Source of the DNA: a bacterium
GTDB taxonomy: Bacteria > Patescibacteriota > Minisyncoccia > UBA6257 > 02-FULL-45-10c
NCBI GenBank assembly: GCA_030700025.1
Contig: JAUYKI010000017.1
Coordinates: 2,748 to 66,747, forward strand
Direction of reading: 5' to 3'
DNA length: 64,000 nt
The notes beneath the pieces are model-generated. The model searched no databases. It was not told where the DNA came from and saw only the letters and a program-made list of their open reading frames with translations. Made by a program: the position numbers and the translations under genes. Positions 3,341 through 44,932 of this stretch are shown here, in pieces. Numbering within the stretch: the first letter of the stretch is position 1; every line of letters starts with the position of its first letter.

Positions 3341-3399
3341 TTTTTTAAATTGGACATTTAGAATTTTATTAGAAATTAGATATTAGTAATTAGAAATTT

Positions 3400-4668
3400 A
3401 TGTTTAAAAAGTATGTTTTATCCAGCGGTTTAAGAGTGGTGTTGGCTCCCCAGCCGGACAATGTGGCGGCCACGGTTTTGGTATTGGTAGAGGCGGGATC
3501 AAAATACGAAACCAAAAAAATTAACGGCTTATCTCATTTTTTGGAACATTTATGTTTTAAGGGAACGGCTAAGCGGCCGACGGCGATTGCCATTGCTTCA
3601 GAATTGGAATCTTTGGGAGCGGTTTACAATGCTTTTACCGGGCACGAAGTAACCGGTTATTACGCCAAAGTCGGCGCGTCTAAAATTAATTCGGCTTTGG
3701 ATATTATCGCCGATCTTTATCAGGACCCGGTTTTTGACGAAGCGGAATTTGAAAAAGAAAAAGGAGTTATTATTGAAGAAATTAATTTATACGAAGATAC
3801 GCCGACCCGGAAAGTCCAGGAACTTTTTACGGAATTGATGTACGGCGATCAGCCGGCCGGCTGGCCCATCGGCGGTTTGAAGGAAGTAATTTTGTCGTTA
3901 AAAAAACAGGATGTTTTGAATTACCGCTCGGAGCACTACGTGGCTAAGGCTACGACCGTAGTGGTTGCTGGCGCTTTTAATGAAAAAGAAATGCTGAAAA
4001 GAATAAAAACGCTTTTTGCTAAAACTCCGGCTAACAAAAAATTCTCTAAAATCCGCACTCAAGAATCCCAGGCCCGGCCTCAAACTTTAGTGCGCTTTAA
4101 AAAATCAGACCAAACTCATTTGGTAATGGGCTTCCGGGCATTTGACCGGTACGATAAACGGCAGTACGCGCTGGAAGTTTTAGCGGATATTTTGGGCGGC
4201 GGCATGAGCTCCCGGCTTTTTCAAAGAATCAGGGCAGAATTAGGCGCGGCTTATTACGTTAAAGCCGGAACCGATTTATTTACGGATCATGGATTTTTGT
4301 CCGTATCGGCCGGAGTGGACCACCGGAAATTAAAAGAAGTTATTGAGGCAGCTTTGGGGGAGTTTAAGAAAATTTCTTCGGTTTTGGTAACTTCCAATGA
4401 GCTAGAAAAATCTAAGAATCATTTGACCGGCCAGGCGATGCTGGGTTTGGAAACCTCGGACGCCTTAGCCAGTTTTTACGGAGAACAGGAGATTTTCCAG
4501 GAAAAGATATTGAACCTTCGGGACGTTATTAAAAAAATAGAGGCCGTGACCGCTAAAGACGTTTTAAACGTTGCCCGTGAAATTATGAAGGATAAAAAGT
4601 TGAATTTGGCGCTTATCGGACCGGTCAAGAAGCTTCCGACCGGGCTGGATTTTAGTTTGGGGCGGTAG
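3400..4668 (+). CDS. M16 family zinc peptidase (pitrilysin-like)
   Basis: HFLEHLCFKGT carries the inverted zinc motif HxxEH. The 422-aa two-domain length is typical. Confidence 0.85.
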   Translation: MFKKYVLSSGLRVVLAPQPDNVAATVLVLVEAGSKYETKKINGLSHFLEHLCFKGTAKRPTAIAIASELESLGAVYNAFTGHEVTGYYAKVGASKINSALDIIADLYQDPVFDEAEFEKEKGVIIEEINLYEDTPTRKVQELFTELMYGDQPAGWPIGGLKEVILSLKKQDVLNYRSEHYVAKATTVVVAGAFNEKEMLKRIKTLFAKTPANKKFSKIRTQESQARPQTLVRFKKSDQTHLVMGFRAFDRYDKRQYALEVLADILGGGMSSRLFQRIRAELGAAYYVKAGTDLFTDHGFLSVSAGVDHRKLKEVIEAALGEFKKISSVLVTSNELEKSKNHLTGQAMLGLETSDALASFYGEQEIFQEKILNLRDVIKKIEAVTAKDVLNVAREIMKDKKLNLALIGPVKKLPTGLDFSLGR

Positions 4669-5745: not shown

Positions 5746-5773
5746 AATCTAGAATCTAATATCTAGAATAAGA

Positions 5774-5796
5774 ATCGCCAAAACGGCGATTTTTTA
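5774..5796 (+). terminator. Intrinsic terminator
   Basis: ATCGCC-aaaac-GGCGAT followed by TTTTT. Confidence 0.6.
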
Positions 5797-5803
5797 TTAT
5801 TTA

Positions 5804-6092
5804 GAACCTATCTCAATAATATTTCCTAACCGCGTTGCTAAGATAAATGCCAGATTTCAAGGCACGACGACGAAATTATGGCCATAGCCACATTGAGGAG
5901 GAGTAACGAAGAAATATGGCATTTAGACCGCAACCCAAAGGGACATAGTAAATTTTGTTCATAACTTCGTTGCTCGGGCTCGACGTAGCCAAGCTACAGT
6001 CTCGCCCCTGCCTGCCGGTAGGCAGGCTCGCGCCTTGTTCTGAATCAAAATTTACTTATATCGCGTTTGGAATTATTATTGGGATAGGTTCT
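5804..6092 (+). ncRNA. Candidate structured element, ~280-nt family, copy 1 (RNA versus DNA repeat unresolved)
   Basis: 24-nt terminal arms pair (5804-5827 with 6069-6092, 2 mismatches). P2 pairs 5844-5858 with 5911-5925 (14/15). P3 pairs 5947-5957 with 6046-6056 (11/11). Shares the core TGAGGAGGAGTAACGAAG and CTTCGTTGCTCG with the copies at 27767 and 44559. Confidence 0.5.
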
Positions 6093-6093
6093 T

Positions 6094-7722
6094 ATGTCTA
6101 AGTTCTATATCACTACCTCTATTGCTTATGTTAATGCCGCCCCGCATATTGGTTTTGCGCTGGAAGCGGTTCAGGCGGACGTAGTTGCCCGCTGGCATAA
6201 GCAGGAGGAAGTCTTCTTTTTAACCGGCACAGACGAGCACGGAGCGAAAATTGCCAGGGCCGCGGCCGCCTCGCGCGGCGAGGCGCCGCCGAAAGCGAGC
6301 CTCGCCACTGGCGGGAGCCTCGCCCCAAAGGGGCGGGAAGCCGACAATAAGTTAATAAAAGAATTTGTTGATCAGCAAGCAGAAAAGTTTAAAGCGTTAA
6401 AAAGCGCGCTTAATTTATCCTGGGACAACTTCATCCGGACTTCCGACCAAAAAGTTCATTGGCCGGTGGCGCAAGAAGTCTGGAAGCGGATTGCGGAGGC
6501 GGGCGATTTATATAAAAAAACTTATCAGGGGCTTTATTGCGTCGGCCACGAAGCGTTTGTTACCCAGAAAGACTTAGTGGCGGAAACCCCGACGCTAGAG
6601 GGTCGGGGCTCCGACCGAAGCGCCGGAGATGCCTTAGTATGTAAAGATCATAAAAAAGCCCCGGAGCTTATAGAAGAAGAAAACTGGTTTTTTAAATTAT
6701 CAAAATATACGAAAGATATTGAATTGCGAATAAAGAATGATGAATTACGGATTATTCCGGAAGGCCGGAAAAATGAGGTTTTGGGCTTGCTTAAGGACGA
6801 TCCGGAAGATGGTTCGGCAAGCTCACCACAAGACGTGAGTTTCTCCCGGCCGAGCAAAGACTTAACCTGGGGCGTTCCGGTGCCGGGCGATGATTCGCAA
6901 ACCATGTATGTCTGGGCAGATGCCCTCACGAACTATATTAGCGGTTATGGCGGAGTTAAAAACTGGGAAAAGCATCCGGCGGATATCCATTTTATCGGTA
7001 AAGATATTTTACGTTTTCACGCGATCATTTGGCCGGCGATGCTTTTATCGGCAAAATTGCCCTTGCCGAAAACTATTTTTGTGCACGGCCATATTTTGTC
7101 TGACGGGCAGAAGATGTCTAAATCCTTAGGCAATGTGGTGGATCCGTTTGAATTAGTAAAAAAGTATGGTTCGGCAAGCTCATCACAAGCTGGCACAGAT
7201 GCAGTTCGGTATTTTCTTTTGCGGGAAATTCCGTCGGCGGAAGACGGCGATTTTAGCTATGAAAAATTTACCCAGCGGTATAACGCGGATTTGGCAAACG
7301 GATTAGGTAATTTTGCGGCCCGGGTTTTAACCCTTGCGAGTAATTACAGCGAATATTTTACAATTCACGCTAACCCCCAGAACGTTCACGAGGTGGTTAA
7401 TGACAAAATTAAGGAAACCCAATTATTAGCTAATAAGAAAATCACGGATTTTAAACTTAACGAAGCACTAGAAATAATTTGGAGCTTAATCCATTTTGGG
7501 GATCAGTATATAAATGAAAAAAAACCATGGGAGCGAAAGGATGAAAAAATAATAGAGGCAAATGGCGTAGCGATTCACAGTTCGGTAGCAATTTTAAATA
7601 ACGTGGCGATTTTACTCCAACCATTTTTGCCGGACACCGCGGATAAAATTACCAAGAGCATCGTTTGGGAAGAAGGTAGGCTGGAAATCCAAAAGACCGA
7701 AAATTTATTTCCGAGATTGTAA
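6094..7722 (+). CDS. metG: Methionine--tRNA ligase
   Basis: N-terminus YITTSIAYVNAAPHIGF, a KMSKS motif (KMSKSLGN) and WADALTNY. Carries several in-frame repeat-derived insertions (see findings). Confidence 0.9.
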   Translation: MSKFYITTSIAYVNAAPHIGFALEAVQADVVARWHKQEEVFFLTGTDEHGAKIARAAAASRGEAPPKASLATGGSLAPKGREADNKLIKEFVDQQAEKFKALKSALNLSWDNFIRTSDQKVHWPVAQEVWKRIAEAGDLYKKTYQGLYCVGHEAFVTQKDLVAETPTLEGRGSDRSAGDALVCKDHKKAPELIEEENWFFKLSKYTKDIELRIKNDELRIIPEGRKNEVLGLLKDDPEDGSASSPQDVSFSRPSKDLTWGVPVPGDDSQTMYVWADALTNYISGYGGVKNWEKHPADIHFIGKDILRFHAIIWPAMLLSAKLPLPKTIFVHGHILSDGQKMSKSLGNVVDPFELVKKYGSASSSQAGTDAVRYFLLREIPSAEDGDFSYEKFTQRYNADLANGLGNFAARVLTLASNYSEYFTIHANPQNVHEVVNDKIKETQLLANKKITDFKLNEALEIIWSLIHFGDQYINEKKPWERKDEKIIEANGVAIHSSVAILNNVAILLQPFLPDTADKITKSIVWEEGRLEIQKTENLFPRL

Positions 7723-8410: not shown

Positions 8411-8603
8411 AGGATAGCACACCTCAAACCCTTTGTCAATAGCGGGTTTGCAATCTCTAAATTCTAATCCCTAATCTCTAAATAAACTCGAAGCTCAAAT
8501 ATCCGGATTTTTAAATTTTATTTTTGAGATTGGACATTGGAAATTGTTTAGAAATTAGGGTTTAGGAATTAGAAATTTATCAAAACATGTTATTATTAAT
8601 TCC

Positions 8604-11740: not shown

Positions 11741-11745
11741 AATTT

Positions 11746-11891
11746 AGAAAGAGTGTTTTATTCTCCCGCTACTGTTCAAACTCCCGGCGAGAGTTTTCAC
11801 TGGGTCTCGGGCTTCGCTCTTTCCGCCTTTGGCGGAAAACCCTGCCCGCTCAGCCCTCAGCCCGCGCTACGGAGAATAAAACACTCTTTCT
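11746..11891 (+). repeat. GC-rich inverted-repeat-bounded element, copy E1
   Basis: AGAAAGAGTGTTTTATTCTCC and GGAGAATAAAACACTCTTTCT form perfect 21-nt arms. The interior is homologous to the reverse complement of 36623-36810. Confidence 0.7.
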
Positions 11892-11904
11892 AATTTTTAT
11901 GGAA

Positions 11905-19985: not shown

Positions 19986-20011
19986 GCCCGCGGAATTCCG
20001 CGGGCATTTTT
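19986..20011 (+). terminator. Intrinsic terminator
   Basis: GCCCGCGG-aatt-CCGCGGGC followed by ATTTTT. Confidence 0.6.
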
Positions 20012-20017
20012 ATTTTT

Positions 20018-20062
20018 AATTGGCTTGTATCGCGTTATGGGATTACTATTAGAATAGGTTCT
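20018..20062 (+). repeat. Solo 3' end of the ~280-nt element family
   Basis: 40 of 45 nt identical to 44787-44831 (AATTGGCT..TATCGCGTTATGGGATTA.TATT.G.ATAGGTTCT). Confidence 0.65.
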
Positions 20063-20065
20063 ATT

Positions 20066-20905
20066 ATGGAAAAGTTTATCGGATTAATTTTATTGGCTTT
20101 TGCCGTTGCCGCGGGAATCTTTATATTTTCCCGCGAGGGCGGTTTGTCCAAGTTGGCGGCTCCTTACACTGTTAAGTTGGAGCCGTATTCTTACCGGCAA
20201 AGATATTCGGATGCCGGAGCGGATCAGCCCTCTGGATCGGACTATAGCTCTTACGGCCAATCGGAAATTGAAAACAGAAAGTTGTTAACCATTTCTTCGT
20301 TCCGGCCAGCCAATAGTTATGTTTCTTATTCGGAGATAGTTTTAGATTCCAATTTGAACAGCGGCGAGACCGCGGACATTACCGGCTGGATCATTAAGGG
20401 TGAACACGGATCATTCACTATTCCGCGGGCGCAGGAAGTTTTTTCTTCCGGCGGAGTTGAGGGCAATATCGTGGCGCGTTCCCGGGACGCGATTTATCTT
20501 TATTCCGGCTTTGGACCGAAGGGCAATTTCCGTTTGAATAAATGCCTTGGTTACATAGAAGACGTTGCTCCGTTTACGCCGCCTCTGCCTAAAGATTGCC
20601 CGCAAATTTCCTGGTCGGAGATGCAGAGGTTCGGGGGTTATTGCCGGGATTATATTTCTTCGCTGGATACTTGCCAGACACCGAATGCTAATCCGCCGGT
20701 GCCCTTGGAAGATACGGCTTGCCACGCTTTTTTGCGGGATTTGAACTATGTCGGCTGTGTTGCGAATCATCGGAACGATCAGGATTTTCGTTCCAACGAA
20801 TGGAGGGTTTGGATGGGGGATCAGATGAATATCTTTGACCCAATTCACGATCGAATCCAGCTTTGGGATAAAAGCGGAAAATTGGTAGACGAATACATTT
20901 ATTAG
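20066..20905 (+). CDS. Membrane-anchored lamin-tail-domain-like protein
   Basis: Start moved to MEKFIGLILLAFAVAAGIFIF (TM helix). The upstream part of the ORF crosses a terminator. ...ADITGWIIKGEHGSFTIP... resembles the LTD signature. Confidence 0.6.
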   Translation: MEKFIGLILLAFAVAAGIFIFSREGGLSKLAAPYTVKLEPYSYRQRYSDAGADQPSGSDYSSYGQSEIENRKLLTISSFRPANSYVSYSEIVLDSNLNSGETADITGWIIKGEHGSFTIPRAQEVFSSGGVEGNIVARSRDAIYLYSGFGPKGNFRLNKCLGYIEDVAPFTPPLPKDCPQISWSEMQRFGGYCRDYISSLDTCQTPNANPPVPLEDTACHAFLRDLNYVGCVANHRNDQDFRSNEWRVWMGDQMNIFDPIHDRIQLWDKSGKLVDEYIY

Positions 20906-24686: not shown

Positions 24687-24822
24687 TTCCTCTAATTATA
24701 ACAGATGGGGCGGGGATTGCGTTTTAAAACCCCCGCGTTTGCGGGGGTTAAATCGTAGCTCCGATGCTTCGATCGGGGCATAAGAAAATTTAAAGCTCAT
24801 TTTTCGCTAAGATTTTCTAATG

Positions 24823-24909
24823 CGGAAGCGGAAGGATTCGAACCTTCGAAGCCATTTCTGGCTTACCGCATTTCAAGTGCGGCCCATTCAACCGCTCTGG
24901 CACGCTTCC
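24823..24909 (-). tRNA. tRNA-Ser (anticodon UGA)
   Basis: Manual cloverleaf: GGAAGCG acceptor stem, anticodon loop CTTGAAA, long variable arm and GGTTCGAATCC T-arm. Confidence 0.9.
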
Positions 24910-27766: not shown

Positions 27767-28041
27767 GGGGTCTGTCATAAAATTACTGGCTTAATTTGGA
27801 GGCCTGGATTTGAGACAGGTACGAGACGCGACGACGACAACGTGTCTGAATGAAGGACACGTTGAGGAGGAGTAACGAAGTAGCTGGCCAAAGATAGGCC
27901 TCCCCGAAGGGCCAAAGCATTTTATGGGCTGCGACTGCGTCACTCGTCGTCAATGTAGCTAAAGCTACAATCTCCTCCTCGTTTCTTGTCTCGCTCCAAA
28001 AATGCTATGGTAAATAAGTCATTAATTTTATGACAGACCCC
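27767..28041 (+). ncRNA. Candidate structured element, ~280-nt family, copy 3
   Basis: P1 pairs 27767-27785 with 28023-28041 (19/19, sequence unrelated to copies 1 and 2). P2 pairs 27798-27805 with 27896-27903. P3 pairs 27916-27923 with 27999-28006. Hairpins at 27839-27863 and 27954-27969. Core TGAGGAGGAGTAACGAAG at 27863-27880. Confidence 0.5.
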
Positions 28042-28813: not shown

Positions 28814-28900
28814 GGAAGCGTGCCAGAGCGGTTGAATGGGCCGCACTCGAAATGCGGTATGCCCGAAAGGGCATCGAAGGTTCGAATCCTTCCGCTTCCG
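28814..28900 (+). tRNA. tRNA-Ser (anticodon CGA)
   Basis: Near-identical to the tRNA at 24823-24909, apart from the anticodon and a compensated variable arm. Confidence 0.9.
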
Positions 28901-28957
28901 CAATTTTTAAATTGAGGTTGTTTTTATTTGTTAATCGTGGTATTTATATAGAGCTTT

Positions 28958-33060: not shown

Positions 33061-34599
33061 ATGGGACCGGAAGAAGCAGATCAGTTAGTTCAGAAATATT
33101 TTAAGCGAAAGGGATTGCCGTTAATGCCAGCAGTTACCTTTGATGATGTTTTAGTTCGGGAAGGAATTTCCAGCATTGCTAGCCGGAGCGACATTACTAA
33201 TTTAAAGGCTCAGCTGGCAAAAGATTTTTGGCTGAATATTCCGGTAGTGTCCGCTAATATGGACACGGTTACGGATTCGCGTATGGCAATTGCTTTGGCT
33301 CGGCTGGGCGGTATGGGTTTCATCCATCAGTTCGTTTCGCTGGAAGACCGGCTGGAAGAAGTCAGCAAGGTTAAGCGGGCGGACAATATGGTGATTGAAA
33401 ATCCGGCGACCATTCGTCCGGAAGCAACTTGGGCGGAAGCGCAAGCGGTAATGGCGGAACGGGAAATTTCCTGTTTGCTGGTTACTGACGCGCAAGGAAT
33501 TTTGGCCGGCATCTTAACGTCGCGCGATACTCAATTTTGTTCCGACCCCAACGCTTTAGTTGGAGATTTAATGACTCCGAAAACCAGAGACGGACACTTT
33601 GTTTTGCAAACTGCCCGTCCGGATATTTCCAATGAAGACGCGGAAAAAATGTTAAAGCGTTCCAAGGTAGAAAAACTTCCTTTAATAGATGATGAGGGCA
33701 AGGTGGTTGGATTGATTACGGCGAAAGATATTTTAAAGCGCCGGATGTTTCCCAACGCGGCCCGGGACGAAAAGGGCCAGCTGTTAGTTGGCGCTACTTT
33801 GCGGTTCAGCGGAAATTATTTGGAAGAAGCGAAAGCGTTGATCGACGCCGGAGCGGATGTATTGCTGTTAGATACGGCGCGAGCCAGTTCTTCATCAGAG
33901 GACGGAATTTTGGCGTCGCAGTATTTAACGCCCGGGAAAATTGTGGAATTAGCCGCGGAAAGAACCGCGAAAATTAAATACGTGTTTCCAAAAATAGTTT
34001 TAGTGGTTGGTAATACTGCCAATCCGGAAGCGGTGGCGCTTCTGGCAAGCCGTGGAGCGGATTGCGTTAAAATCGGAATTGGGCCGGGAGCGGGATGTAA
34101 GACTCAGGAAGTAGCCGGAATCGGTTCGCCTCAGCTTCACGCGATCGCGCAATGCGCGGCGGTGGCCAGAGAAATCGGAGTTTGTTTAATGGCTGACGGC
34201 GGAATTAGAAATGGCGGTTGCATGGTTAAAGCGCTAGTTGGCGGAGCAAATGTGGTGATGCTGGGAAGTTTGCTGGCGGGAACCGACAAATCTCCGGGCC
34301 TGCTGGTTTGGAATCGAAAGGAAAATAAACTGGTTAAGAAATACCGCGGTTCGGCATCCACTGAACATCAGCTGGATAGGATTAAAGTTGGGGATTTGCA
34401 CGCGGTTAGAACGTCAGAGGGCGAAGCCGGAGCGGTTCCTTACATGGGCACGACGGTTTCGCTGATTGATGATCTGCTTGGCGGATTGCGGTCGGGCATG
34501 AGTTATGTCGGCGCCCATAACCTAGAAGAGCTTTGGCAGTTCGGCAGATTTGTTTGGAGAACGCAGGCCGGAATTGAAGAAGGAAGACCCCGAATATAA
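33061..34599 (+). CDS. guaB: IMP dehydrogenase family protein with CBS pair
   Basis: GIGPGAGCKTQEVAGIGSPQ catalytic-Cys loop, and a CBS pair at roughly aa 110-230. Confidence 0.85.
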   Translation: MGPEEADQLVQKYFKRKGLPLMPAVTFDDVLVREGISSIASRSDITNLKAQLAKDFWLNIPVVSANMDTVTDSRMAIALARLGGMGFIHQFVSLEDRLEEVSKVKRADNMVIENPATIRPEATWAEAQAVMAEREISCLLVTDAQGILAGILTSRDTQFCSDPNALVGDLMTPKTRDGHFVLQTARPDISNEDAEKMLKRSKVEKLPLIDDEGKVVGLITAKDILKRRMFPNAARDEKGQLLVGATLRFSGNYLEEAKALIDAGADVLLLDTARASSSSEDGILASQYLTPGKIVELAAERTAKIKYVFPKIVLVVGNTANPEAVALLASRGADCVKIGIGPGAGCKTQEVAGIGSPQLHAIAQCAAVAREIGVCLMADGGIRNGGCMVKALVGGANVVMLGSLLAGTDKSPGLLVWNRKENKLVKKYRGSASTEHQLDRIKVGDLHAVRTSEGEAGAVPYMGTTVSLIDDLLGGLRSGMSYVGAHNLEELWQFGRFVWRTQAGIEEGRPRI

Positions 34600-34711
34600 A
34601 TTTCTAATTACTAATTTCTAATTACTAATGACTAAGTTCAAAATTCAAATCCCGCAATTGCGGGATTTTTTATTTGAAAATACTTCAAAATTGATTTAAT
34701 ATATTTTCAAC

Positions 34712-36622: not shown

Positions 36623-36810
36623 AGAAAAGAAACTTTATTCTCCGTAGCGCGGGCTGAGCCTGCCTGCCGGTAGGCAGGGGCTGAGCGGGCAGGGTGTCCC
36701 GCGAAGCGGGACGAGCGAAGCCCGAGACCCAGTGAAAACTTCCCTCACTCTTGTACAAAAGTGAGGGACTGGGAGTTTGAACGGTAGCGGGAGAATAAAG
36801 TTTCTTTTCT
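36623..36810 (-). repeat. GC-rich inverted-repeat-bounded element, copy E2 (inverted relative to E1)
   Basis: AGAAAAGAAACTTTATTCTCC and GGAGAATAAAGTTTCTTTTCT form perfect arms. Homologous to E1, with two nested hairpin insertions (36659-36678, 36741-36768). Its end overlaps the comFC stop codon. Confidence 0.7.
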
Positions 36811-37507: not shown

Positions 37508-37750
37508 GTCTGTTATACTAATAATAGATTTAGAATAAGGCAATGGATTCCAATAACTAATTTCTAATATCTAATTTCTAATAAAATGACCGAAATCACA
37601 AACCACAAGCACCAAATCACAAACAAGCACCAATGACCAAAATCATAAATTTAAAACCCGTTTGGAATTTCTATTATTTGAATTTAGAATTTGTTTGTAA
37701 TTTGAGATTTGTAATTTGGAATTTTATCAGAAATTGTAAATTGTAAATTT

Positions 37751-44557: not shown

Positions 44558-44558
44558 T

Positions 44559-44830
44559 GAACCTATCCCAATAATAATCCTCAAACGCGTTGCTAGTATA
44601 AATTGAAAATTTCTAGGCCTGCCGAGGAGCTTGTGGCCATAGCCACAGTGAGGAGGCAGAACAACGAAATTTTCAATTTAGACAGCAACCCCAAGAGGGA
44701 TACAGCCAATTTTATCCATAACGTCGTTGCTCGTCGAAGATATAGCTTACGCTATAAATCTTCTCCTCGCGTCTAGTTCTGAATAAAATTGGCTAATATC
44801 GCGTTATGGGATTATTATTGGGATAGGTTC
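44559..44830 (+). ncRNA. Candidate structured element, ~280-nt family, copy 2 (best preserved)
   Basis: P1 22/22, P2 15/15, P3 12/12, two hairpins and conserved cores. See the finding for coordinates. Confidence 0.55.
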
Positions 44831-44932
44831 TATGTTACACTTATTAAAGGTCGGAAATAAGATGTAATACCAATATACGAATTATTCGTATCATTAGTAT
44901 GAATTAGTATATTAGTATCTCATTATAAATAT

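Follow-up and report, generated by a model that had tools for sequence, protein, structure and literature searches.

We analyzed a 64,000-nt stretch of a Patescibacteriota contig (JAUYKI010000017.1; hereafter the window), in which a structured element lies directly upstream of metG. [quoted passage not shown] The element, denoted copy 1 (type A; 5803–6092, + strand), occupies the short spacer between the terminator of an AI-2E transporter gene and the start codon of metG (6094–7722, + strand), which encodes a 542-aa methionyl-tRNA synthetase (MetRS; Pfam tRNA-synt_1g, E = 3.6e-85). MetRS homologs place the window within Patescibacteria close to Harrisonbacteria, and the window MetRS is 100% identical to a protein of a metagenome-assembled genome in NCBI. 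The 3′ arm of copy 1 abuts the metG ATG, a position attributable to the site of the element in a genome that is very compact. Copy 1 matches the family profile (nhmmer, E = 9e-56), its 291 nt fold as RNA at −117.5 kcal/mol (z = −8.8 relative to dinucleotide shuffles), and it is missing from the orthologous spacer of three relatives.

Family members and empty orthologous spacers

The window contains three full copies and two 3′-arm remnants of this family of 275–300-nt repeats, which we take as non-coding; all five lie on the + strand. Copy 2 (type A; 44558–44831; fold z = −12.7) starts 1 nt after the stop codon of pilC (T2SS-F), 100 nt from the next gene. Copy 3 (type B; 27767–28041; fold z = −8.7) has the same core and different arm sequences, which gave a first sign of covariation. 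A 5′-truncated remnant (20003–20062) retains the last ~55 nt, consisting of the 3′ strand of stem P3 and the 3′ arm of stem P1 described below, and is positioned 3 nt before an ATG with a terminator just upstream (19986–20005). A short remnant of the 3′ arm terminus (57122–57146) is followed by TGGTATAAT and then by an ATG at 57163. Copy 3 also lies in a 3.9-kb segment, with two other tRNA genes, that is bracketed by tRNA-Ser(TGA) (24822–24909, − strand) and tRNA-Ser(CGA) (28814–28901, + strand), which form an 89-nt, 94% complementary inverted repeat.

A strict pattern built from the conserved core and scanned in species-representative genomes identified four members, in two Candidatus Harrisonbacteria metagenome-assembled genomes (MAGs), one Patescibacteria MAG and one Planctomycetales MAG of ~70% GC. 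A looser pattern applied to metagenome contigs returned 30 stretches, of which 23 are true members and seven are coding-like chance matches. The members outside the window (n = 27) are found in Patescibacteria and in high-GC contigs. The family had no match on viral contigs by pattern scan, nor in plasmid or phage collections, including GenBank phages, by BLAST. Rfam 15 at gathering thresholds yielded six tRNAs in the window and nothing else, and at E ≤ 10, copies 1 and 3 gave weak matches far under each family's gathering score; no Rfam family, be it T-box, SAM riboswitch, group I intron, HEARO, 6S, RNase P or another, reached its threshold in the element. Literature searches with keywords and sequence strings returned no description of the ~280-nt element or of the 20-bp insert. 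The Logan contigs, assembled independently from the same sequencing run, end within the element, as a repeat would lead one to expect.

The initial annotation had proposed to compare the orthologous metG upstream regions of related genomes for presence or absence of the element. The gene order Peptidase_M16, AI-2E transporter, metG is kept in the three nearest relatives retrieved (L035, L037 and L038; MetRS 72%, 68% and 65% identical), and the element is absent from the AI-2E–metG spacer of all three. This spacer measures 64, 55 and 66 nt in L035, L037 and L038, respectively, versus 348 nt in the window; subtraction of the 290-nt element from the latter leaves 58 nt. In L035, the terminator hairpin and T-tract are the same as in the window and are followed by the 11-mer ATAAGACCTAT (2987–2997) and then by the ATG. 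This 11-mer resembles the element terminus AGAACCTAT. We rejected the 9-mer AGAACCTAT as a host motif near gene starts, as it has two exact sites outside elements, one of them in a coding region, which is compatible with chance.

The site of copy 2 gives a comparable result. The pilC–pilin spacer is 375 nt long in the window versus 97 and 31 nt in two loci with the same T2SSE-T2SSE-T2SSF-pilin order (L090 and L091), and a conserved portion of this spacer beginning with AAAGGTCGRAAAT sits downstream of copy 2. Because both spacers are short in the relatives, the type A copies represent lineage gains or losses and not conserved leaders.

The genes around the family do not point to a conserved partner. 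Among 76 open reading frames (ORFs) flanking 25 members, no Pfam family is common to more than two and nothing is shared beyond one homologous locus pair. The flanking genes are housekeeping genes, encoding aminoacyl-tRNA synthetases (aaRSs), ribosomal proteins, RRF, FtsH, primase, Dxr, cytochrome bd and others. An apparent excess of aaRS neighbors traces to one homologous region plus metG; in that region, L001:4233–7558 and L012:1695–5098 share SerRS and Asp/Lys-type aaRS neighbors but differ in the spacer that contains the element and in its orientation. Members run antisense to both neighbors at nine loci and are co-oriented at five loci and at the two type A copies of the window, often 0–50 nt from ORF ends. 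No conserved promoter or terminator flanking the members was found in the alignment, and no transposase, reverse transcriptase or integrase was found among the Pfam families listed for the 76 flanking ORFs.

Architecture and covariation of the fold

Using a 28-sequence alignment (A2), RNAalifold, duplex energies and explicit pair counts, we find that the family has a fixed architecture. A closing rod of 30–45 bp (P1) leads to a junction with two arms of ~20 bp (P2 and P3) and, between them, a mini-hairpin of the form CCC-loop-GGG, and each arm is capped by a conserved strand that carries a small hairpin and is complementary to the other cap. The strand capping P2 (S5) consists of blocks a (GGCGCG) and b (ACGACGA), hairpin 1, and blocks c (GAGGAGG) and d (AGCAACGAAG); the strand capping P3 (S3) consists of d′ (CTTCGTTGC), b′ (TCGTCG), hairpin 2 (GTAGC..GCTAC), c′ (CCTCCTC) and a′ (GCGCC).

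In copy 1, the arms of P1 are positioned at 5803–5832 and 6065–6092, an assignment based on sequence, fold and family duplex energies, with AGAACCTATCTCAATAATA (start 5803) complementary to TATTATTGGGATAGGTTCT (end 6092). The 5′ domain (5833–5933) is formed by P2 (5833–5858 with 5911–5933) and S5, whose parts are a (5859–5866), b (5867–5874), hairpin 1 (5875–5894), c (GAGGAGG, 5895–5901) and d (5902–5910). The central mini-hairpin (5934–5943) is kept in 28/28 aligned members. The 3′ domain (5944–6064) is formed by P3 (5944–5965 with 6038–6064) and S3, with d′ (5966–5973), a mutated b′ (5974–5979), hairpin 2 (5985–5997), a disrupted c′ (5998–6029) and a′ (6030–6037). The 3′ arm of P1 ends with GGGATAGGTTCT (6081–6092), followed by a single t and the metG ATG at 6094, in agreement with the 1-nt distance first reported.

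Copy 1 had been described as partly degenerate, with an A–C mismatch in hairpin 1 and a replaced CTCCTC core. Both lesions are real: the outer pair of hairpin 1 is A·C where copy 2 has G–C, and c′ reads TCTCGCC versus (T)CCTCCTC in the family and is additionally split by the 20-bp insert. Block b′ is changed as well (TCGGGC versus TCGTCG). The description holds for the 3′ core strand and not for the overall profile score, by which copy 1 is no worse than copy 2 (185 versus 163 bits). Copy 1 still folds well because its outer stems are intact.

Compensatory double changes support the stems at 7/8 pairs of P2, 8/8 of hairpin 1 and 10/10 of P3 (together 25/26). Across the alignment, 87.8% of pairing cells are paired versus 75.5% in shuffles (0/500 reach the observed value) and 32–50% in slid controls, and 32/59 pairs show double changes, with a covariation score of 0.376 versus 0.146 in shuffles (0/500) and 0.055–0.115 in slid controls; as the sequences tested are related, the shuffle control is a generous one. 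The 5′ and 3′ arms form 30–58 Watson-Crick pairs in 27/27 elements tested and constitute terminal inverted repeats, and the P1 duplex has a family mean of −37.4 kcal/mol versus −13 kcal/mol for mismatched partners. P2 and P3 pair at −27.7 and −20.5 kcal/mol, versus about −11 kcal/mol for the alternative in which the element folds as a single long rod. We rejected the single rod, whose energy is the same as that of mismatched partners, in favor of the branched P1/P2/P3 fold.

The capping strands S5 and S3 can form a duplex with a mean of −52.9 kcal/mol, with blocks b and c in swapped order. The swapped register (b:b′ and c:c′) is invariant and 88–100% paired, being perfect in type A and broken at two pairs in type B. 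The in-register alternative carries two mismatches in 28/28 sequences (C82·C273 and G119·G215), and type B has two coordinated changes that favor in-register core pairing. The core pairing might correspond to a pseudoknot, to a switch or to contacts between molecules, and it appears that not all helices are able to form together in a simple nested fold.

We asked on which strand the structure might act. A search of the reverse complement with the family profile gives matches along the entire length (E = 1e-29 to 1e-15), and neither strand folds clearly better than the other. There are 75 G·U versus 54 A·C pairs in the arms and 61 versus 58 in the core helices, where helix a is biased toward the + strand (24:4) and helix d, conversely, toward the − strand (6:35). 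This mixed balance and the similar folding of the two strands do not single out one of them. The structure may be important as single-stranded DNA, as RNA transcribed from either strand, or in both forms.

These properties bear on a different interpretation of the family, namely that its members are paralogous genes for a functional structured RNA (a ribozyme, a scaffold or a self-associating RNA), of which copy 1 is a pseudogene, and that S5 and S3 act as a pseudoknot, a switch or intermolecular contacts. It would account for the conservation across phyla of the core blocks GGCGCGACGACGA, GAGGAGGAGCAACG, CGTYRCTCGTC and CCTCCTCG while P1, P2, P3 and the hairpins covary, for the strength of the S5–S3 duplex, and for the maintenance of b:b′ and c:c′ over an in-register option with two universal mismatches; the absence of a partner protein gene also suits it. 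The strand preference of helix a, which it would likewise predict, is offset by the opposite preference of helix d and by the near-even overall balance, however, and against it also stand the equally good folding of both strands, the random orientation to neighbors without a conserved flanking promoter or terminator, the gain or loss of copies between relatives, the truncated remnants, and the lack of an Rfam match. We consider this interpretation unlikely, although it survives better than the leader and artefact readings discussed below. By-eye comparison with the topologies of hammerhead, HDV-like, hairpin and twister-sister ribozymes, group I P3–P7 and RNase P P2–P4 gave some topological likeness, no sequence signatures and no Rfam matches, and these candidates were rejected.

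Resemblance to mobile repeats and possible consequences for metG expression

In its behavior, the ~280-nt family comes closest to bacterial MITEs, for which a review covering prokaryotes exists (PMC10969869), and to REP/REPIN elements. Like bacterial MITEs such as the Neisseria Correia and enterobacterial ERIC/IRU elements, which are generally 100–300 bp long, non-coding, intergenic in either orientation and bounded by terminal inverted repeats, the family comprises small units (275–300 nt) with inverted termini, in several copies, that are present or absent between relatives. Bacterial MITEs are also often flush with ORFs, can carry promoter-like hexamers in their arms and are transcribed as long hairpins; the position beside ORFs and the hexamers recur here, and transcripts of the family would likewise be long hairpins. 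Unlike MITEs, the family has no clear target-site duplication and no cognate insertion sequence (IS), and no parent IS or transposase with the same ends is present among the protein families listed. The interior rather than the termini is most conserved, and this across phyla; the arms covary instead of being fixed, and the fold is a branched structure of three stems with two mutually complementary capping strands.

REP and REPIN elements, which are mobilized by RAYT transposases (PMC3116915), offer a second comparison. Di Nocera et al. (2013, PMC3733652) define a REP as a palindrome of 20–40 bp that bears at one of its ends a GTAG or CGTC tag left out of the pairing. The family resembles these elements, whose palindromic units form larger hairpins as inverted pairs and are located mostly just downstream of coding regions and sometimes in genes, with some families occurring in several species. 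In addition, both internal hairpins read GTAGC...GCTAC and the core contains CGTC. The GTAG of the family is found within a 5-bp stem rather than unpaired, however, and its half-unit is ~140 nt long versus 20–40 bp for a REP and about 70–110 bp for a REPIN, which places the family outside the REP definition.

Several observations weigh against the reading of the family as a non-autonomous mobile repeat. No transposase, reverse transcriptase, integrase or RAYT was found among the 25 of 69 matched Pfam families listed for 48 ORFs of the 64-kb window. Target-site duplications are not seen consistently: the flanks of the type A copies do not match, and the TA...TA that flanks type B copies is equally explicable as part of the palindrome. 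The strict pattern found one matching copy per species-representative genome, and the multi-copy state is seen in this window alone. The relatives used for comparison are distant (61–72% protein identity, the nearest 72% in MetRS), so an empty site could reflect loss instead of gain, and ATAAGACCTAT in L035 may be a deletion remnant, or else a target resembling the element end. Finally, sequence conservation of the core strands extends from Patescibacteria to the ~70% GC Planctomycetales MAG; a selfish MITE would not usually show this, and a functional RNA is the better fit. On balance we still judge a mobile-type repeat to be the probable identity of the element; its fold, in single-stranded DNA or in RNA, would be what the propagation machinery recognizes.

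The initial annotation had proposed instead that folding or processing of the element sets the metG mRNA 5′ end or the accessibility of its start codon. This reading is favored by the distance of 1 nt between P1 and the AUG; the L012 member, too, stops 1 nt short of the ATG of an aaRS gene. The predicted fold leaves the metG AUG unpaired and renders positions −1 to −45 double-stranded if the element is transcribed. A −10-like TATTAT (5795–5800) that is conserved with L035 and now lies ~290 nt from the metG ATG could direct transcription to begin within the element's first bases. If this upstream start is used, P1 buries positions −1 to −45, and cleavage or unwinding would be needed. The lack of a Shine-Dalgarno (SD) sequence was confirmed (no GGAG, GAGG, AGGA or AAGG within 30 nt upstream of metG), but 34 of the 49 ORFs in the window lack one likewise, so that its absence is the norm here. 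The element is also missing in the same spacer of the three relatives, the family resides beside unrelated genes and nine times antisense to both neighbors, copy 2 follows a stop codon at 100 nt from the next gene, and copy 1 is damaged in its conserved core. Together with the unpaired AUG, the upstream terminator and weak promoter-like hexamers in the last 45 nt, these findings do not support an evolved leader function, which we regard as improbable. The element likewise resembles aaRS T-box leaders and SAM riboswitches in being a ~300-nt structured element directly upstream of an aaRS gene; it differs from them in having no Rfam match, in not being conserved before metG, and in belonging to a family found beside and antisense to unrelated genes.

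An inserted repeat may nonetheless influence metG. An intrinsic-terminator-like hairpin of the AI-2E transporter gene (5770–5794, + strand) is positioned 8 nt before the element, and the same hairpin lies directly before metG in the element-free L035. Transcription of metG from the displaced upstream TATTAT would yield a structured leader of ~286 nt. Alternatively, it could initiate from hexamers in the 3′ part of the element, where a weak σ70-like site (TTTACT-17-TATTAT; 6051–6079, + strand) matches the consensus at 9/12 positions, which is not significant alone; the same position in copy 2 is 44789–44818, and a TAGAAT is present in the remnant ahead of the ORF at 20066. Initiation there would produce a near-leaderless metG mRNA, as for most genes in the window. 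An SD-like motif precedes 15/49 window ORFs, and many have a TATAAT-like box 6–9 nt before the ATG, which suggests that leaderless or near-leaderless mRNAs are widespread here. Both remnants retain exactly the 3′ terminus beside a gene start, which fits a 3′ arm that has become useful to the downstream gene, although two cases prove nothing. Judged from these sequence features, any effect of the element on metG expression is likely a side effect rather than an evolved leader function.

The metG coding sequence itself carries three in-frame inserts relative to its relatives, at 6262–6345, about 6850–6875 and about 7215–7240. The first encodes a GC-rich segment of ~25 aa (AASRGEAPPKASLATGGSLAPKGRE), and its DNA has a folding energy of −54.7 kcal/mol; the segment is shorter in two relatives and missing from three. 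The other two encode 8 aa each and are present in the window only. The inserts recall palindromic elements that enter genes in-frame. A GC-rich motif, GCGAGCCTCGCC, is found both in the metG insert (6300–6335) and at 60559–60592 within another coding region (ORF 60480–60800), and may represent another small palindrome family.

A nested 20-bp palindrome

The sequence that splits the c′ strand of copy 1 is the near-palindromic 20-mer CCTGCCTGCCGGTAGGCAGG (6007–6026, + strand), an insert present in 1/28 family members. The initial annotation reported an identical 20-mer at 36659–36678, and the window indeed contains exactly these two occurrences, in the same orientation (0.00 expected by chance), with unrelated flanks. 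The second copy (+ strand) is nested in a GC-rich inverted-repeat element (36634–36800), where it sits between two GGCTGAG heptamers. A sister GC-rich element (11741–11896, − strand) has the two heptamers adjacent and represents the empty state. Because the sister lacks exactly these 20 bp, the 20-mer at 36.6 kb is a clean 20-bp indel without added duplication. The 20-mer is also found in the independent Logan assembly (L040:189–208).

The window 20-mer is a one-base variant of the perfect palindrome CCTGCCTGCCGGCAGGCAGG, and a search of viral contigs found it to be one form of a widespread palindrome family. The exact 20-mer occurs at 14 sites in 12 viral stretches of 33–70% GC. With any base allowed at positions 8 and 13, we identified 57 sites in 48 viral stretches, of which 42 are the perfect palindrome CCTGCCTGCCGGCAGGCAGG, 14 are the window variant (12 in the G..T orientation and two as its reverse complement) and one is an A..T form. 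Several viral contigs carry 3–6 copies; the copy-rich contigs, scanned together, encode portal and terminase proteins, and no transposase was recognizable in the palindrome-rich phage contigs scanned. An N-padded 30-mer query with the palindrome had no match among GenBank phages, possibly through masking by the low-complexity filter. The claim that a tiny module has entered two unrelated host elements is thus borne out by the sister GC-rich copy and the 27 other family members that lack it, and by the 57 viral-contig sites. These sequence comparisons support the view that the 20-mer is a discrete module inserted independently into two unrelated host elements. It belongs to a widespread family of 20-bp palindromes, identical or nearly so, whose insertion sites would be intergenic DNA and the loops of hairpin-forming sequences. 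It would have entered the 3′ core strand of copy 1 after the latter was in place and, independently, the GC-rich repeat at 36.6 kb.

To look for target duplications we compared the flanks of 57 distinct sites, comprising the two window sites and the viral sites after removal of duplicate flanks. The flanking direct repeat is 0–2 nt long at 52/57 sites, as in the random expectation, and the exceptions are located between tandem heptamer units. The palindrome sites are depleted in ORFs (29/57 in ORFs, versus 86% of the DNA in greedy ORFs). One perfect palindrome is positioned in the variable loop of a phage tRNA-Met(CAT) (L079:2239–2330; IMGVR_UViG_3300033148_008720), which ARAGORN calls as a 92-nt tRNA; deletion of the 20 bp restores a canonical 72-nt tRNA-Met. 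By eye, the site at L086:515 is D-loop-like and those at L055:8616 and L070:339 are tRNA-associated, although ARAGORN called no tRNAs there. Some palindromes are centered in diverged copies of themselves (L058, L081, L070 and L077).

Elhai and colleagues are said to have described, in 2008, small dispersed repeats of 21–27 nt in heterocyst-forming cyanobacteria, and the GC clusters of yeast mitochondria are likewise small nested mobile repeats. The 20-mer resembles both in being a non-coding hairpin of ~20 nt that is nested in repeats and structured-RNA genes and present in several copies per genome. Unlike them, it keeps the same or a one-base-variant sequence over contigs of 33–70% GC, mostly from phages, with no lineage restriction seen and mostly without target duplication. 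We therefore put forward, tentatively and as a proposal with somewhat less than even standing, that CCTGCCTGCCGG(C/T)AGGCAGG is an exceedingly small DNA module able to spread among very distant hosts and their phages without target duplication by a mechanism not yet described, preferring intergenic DNA and hairpin loops (of repeats, of its own diverged copies, and of tRNA variable and D regions), and that its ~280-nt host is an undescribed cross-phylum family with a functional fold.

That the shared 20-mer is instead a technical artefact (dimerized adapters or linkers, or a misassembly) or matches by chance is very improbable. In favor of this, each copy found fits the search pattern exactly and ~0.5 Mb of loci gave no further diverged ones, the identity across contigs of 33–70% GC is odd for a natural repeat, and the sequence is in no paper we found. 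Against it, chance predicts no copy in the window, two independent assemblies of the run contain it, it is depleted from ORFs, it is placed precisely in a tRNA-Met that remains foldable at 92 nt and nested centrally in its own diverged copies, and it recurs on individual phage contigs with portal and terminase genes. To our knowledge, it is also unlike the common sequencing adapters.

Other small repeats accompany the palindrome. The GC-rich element at 36.6 kb contains a second nested hairpin, CCCTCACTCTTGTACAAAAGTGAGGG (about 36741–36770), that is missing from the sister copy, and a 66-nt palindrome with the same stem is found right after the pilC stop codon in one relative (L090:2710–2775) and not in the other (L091); these look like a further hairpin family common to several genomes. 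Tandem heptamers (such as TTAGAAA and TTAGTAA) directly adjoin several start codons of the window (3358–3401, 8537–8580, 34588–34649, 37548–37587 and 58092–58135), and on phage contigs the 20-bp palindrome is often located between heptamer repeat units.

The structure before metG is thus best treated as an inserted repeat and not as a synthetase leader or riboswitch, and regulatory inferences from its fold should therefore not be transferred to other genomes. We file the ~280-nt element as a palindromic non-autonomous repeat, with a functional structured RNA as a minority possibility; its covarying stems and invariant core make the family a candidate for structure probing. The 20-bp palindrome, if truly mobile, would be among the smallest sequence-defined insertions known. 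The tiny, gene-dense genomes of Patescibacteria appear to tolerate nested layers of palindromes, comprising ~280-nt repeats, ~160-nt GC-rich elements, hairpins of 25–66 nt, the 20-bp palindrome and GC-rich inserts in metG, and such nested insertions bear on the evolution of these genomes and on the transcription of their spacers.

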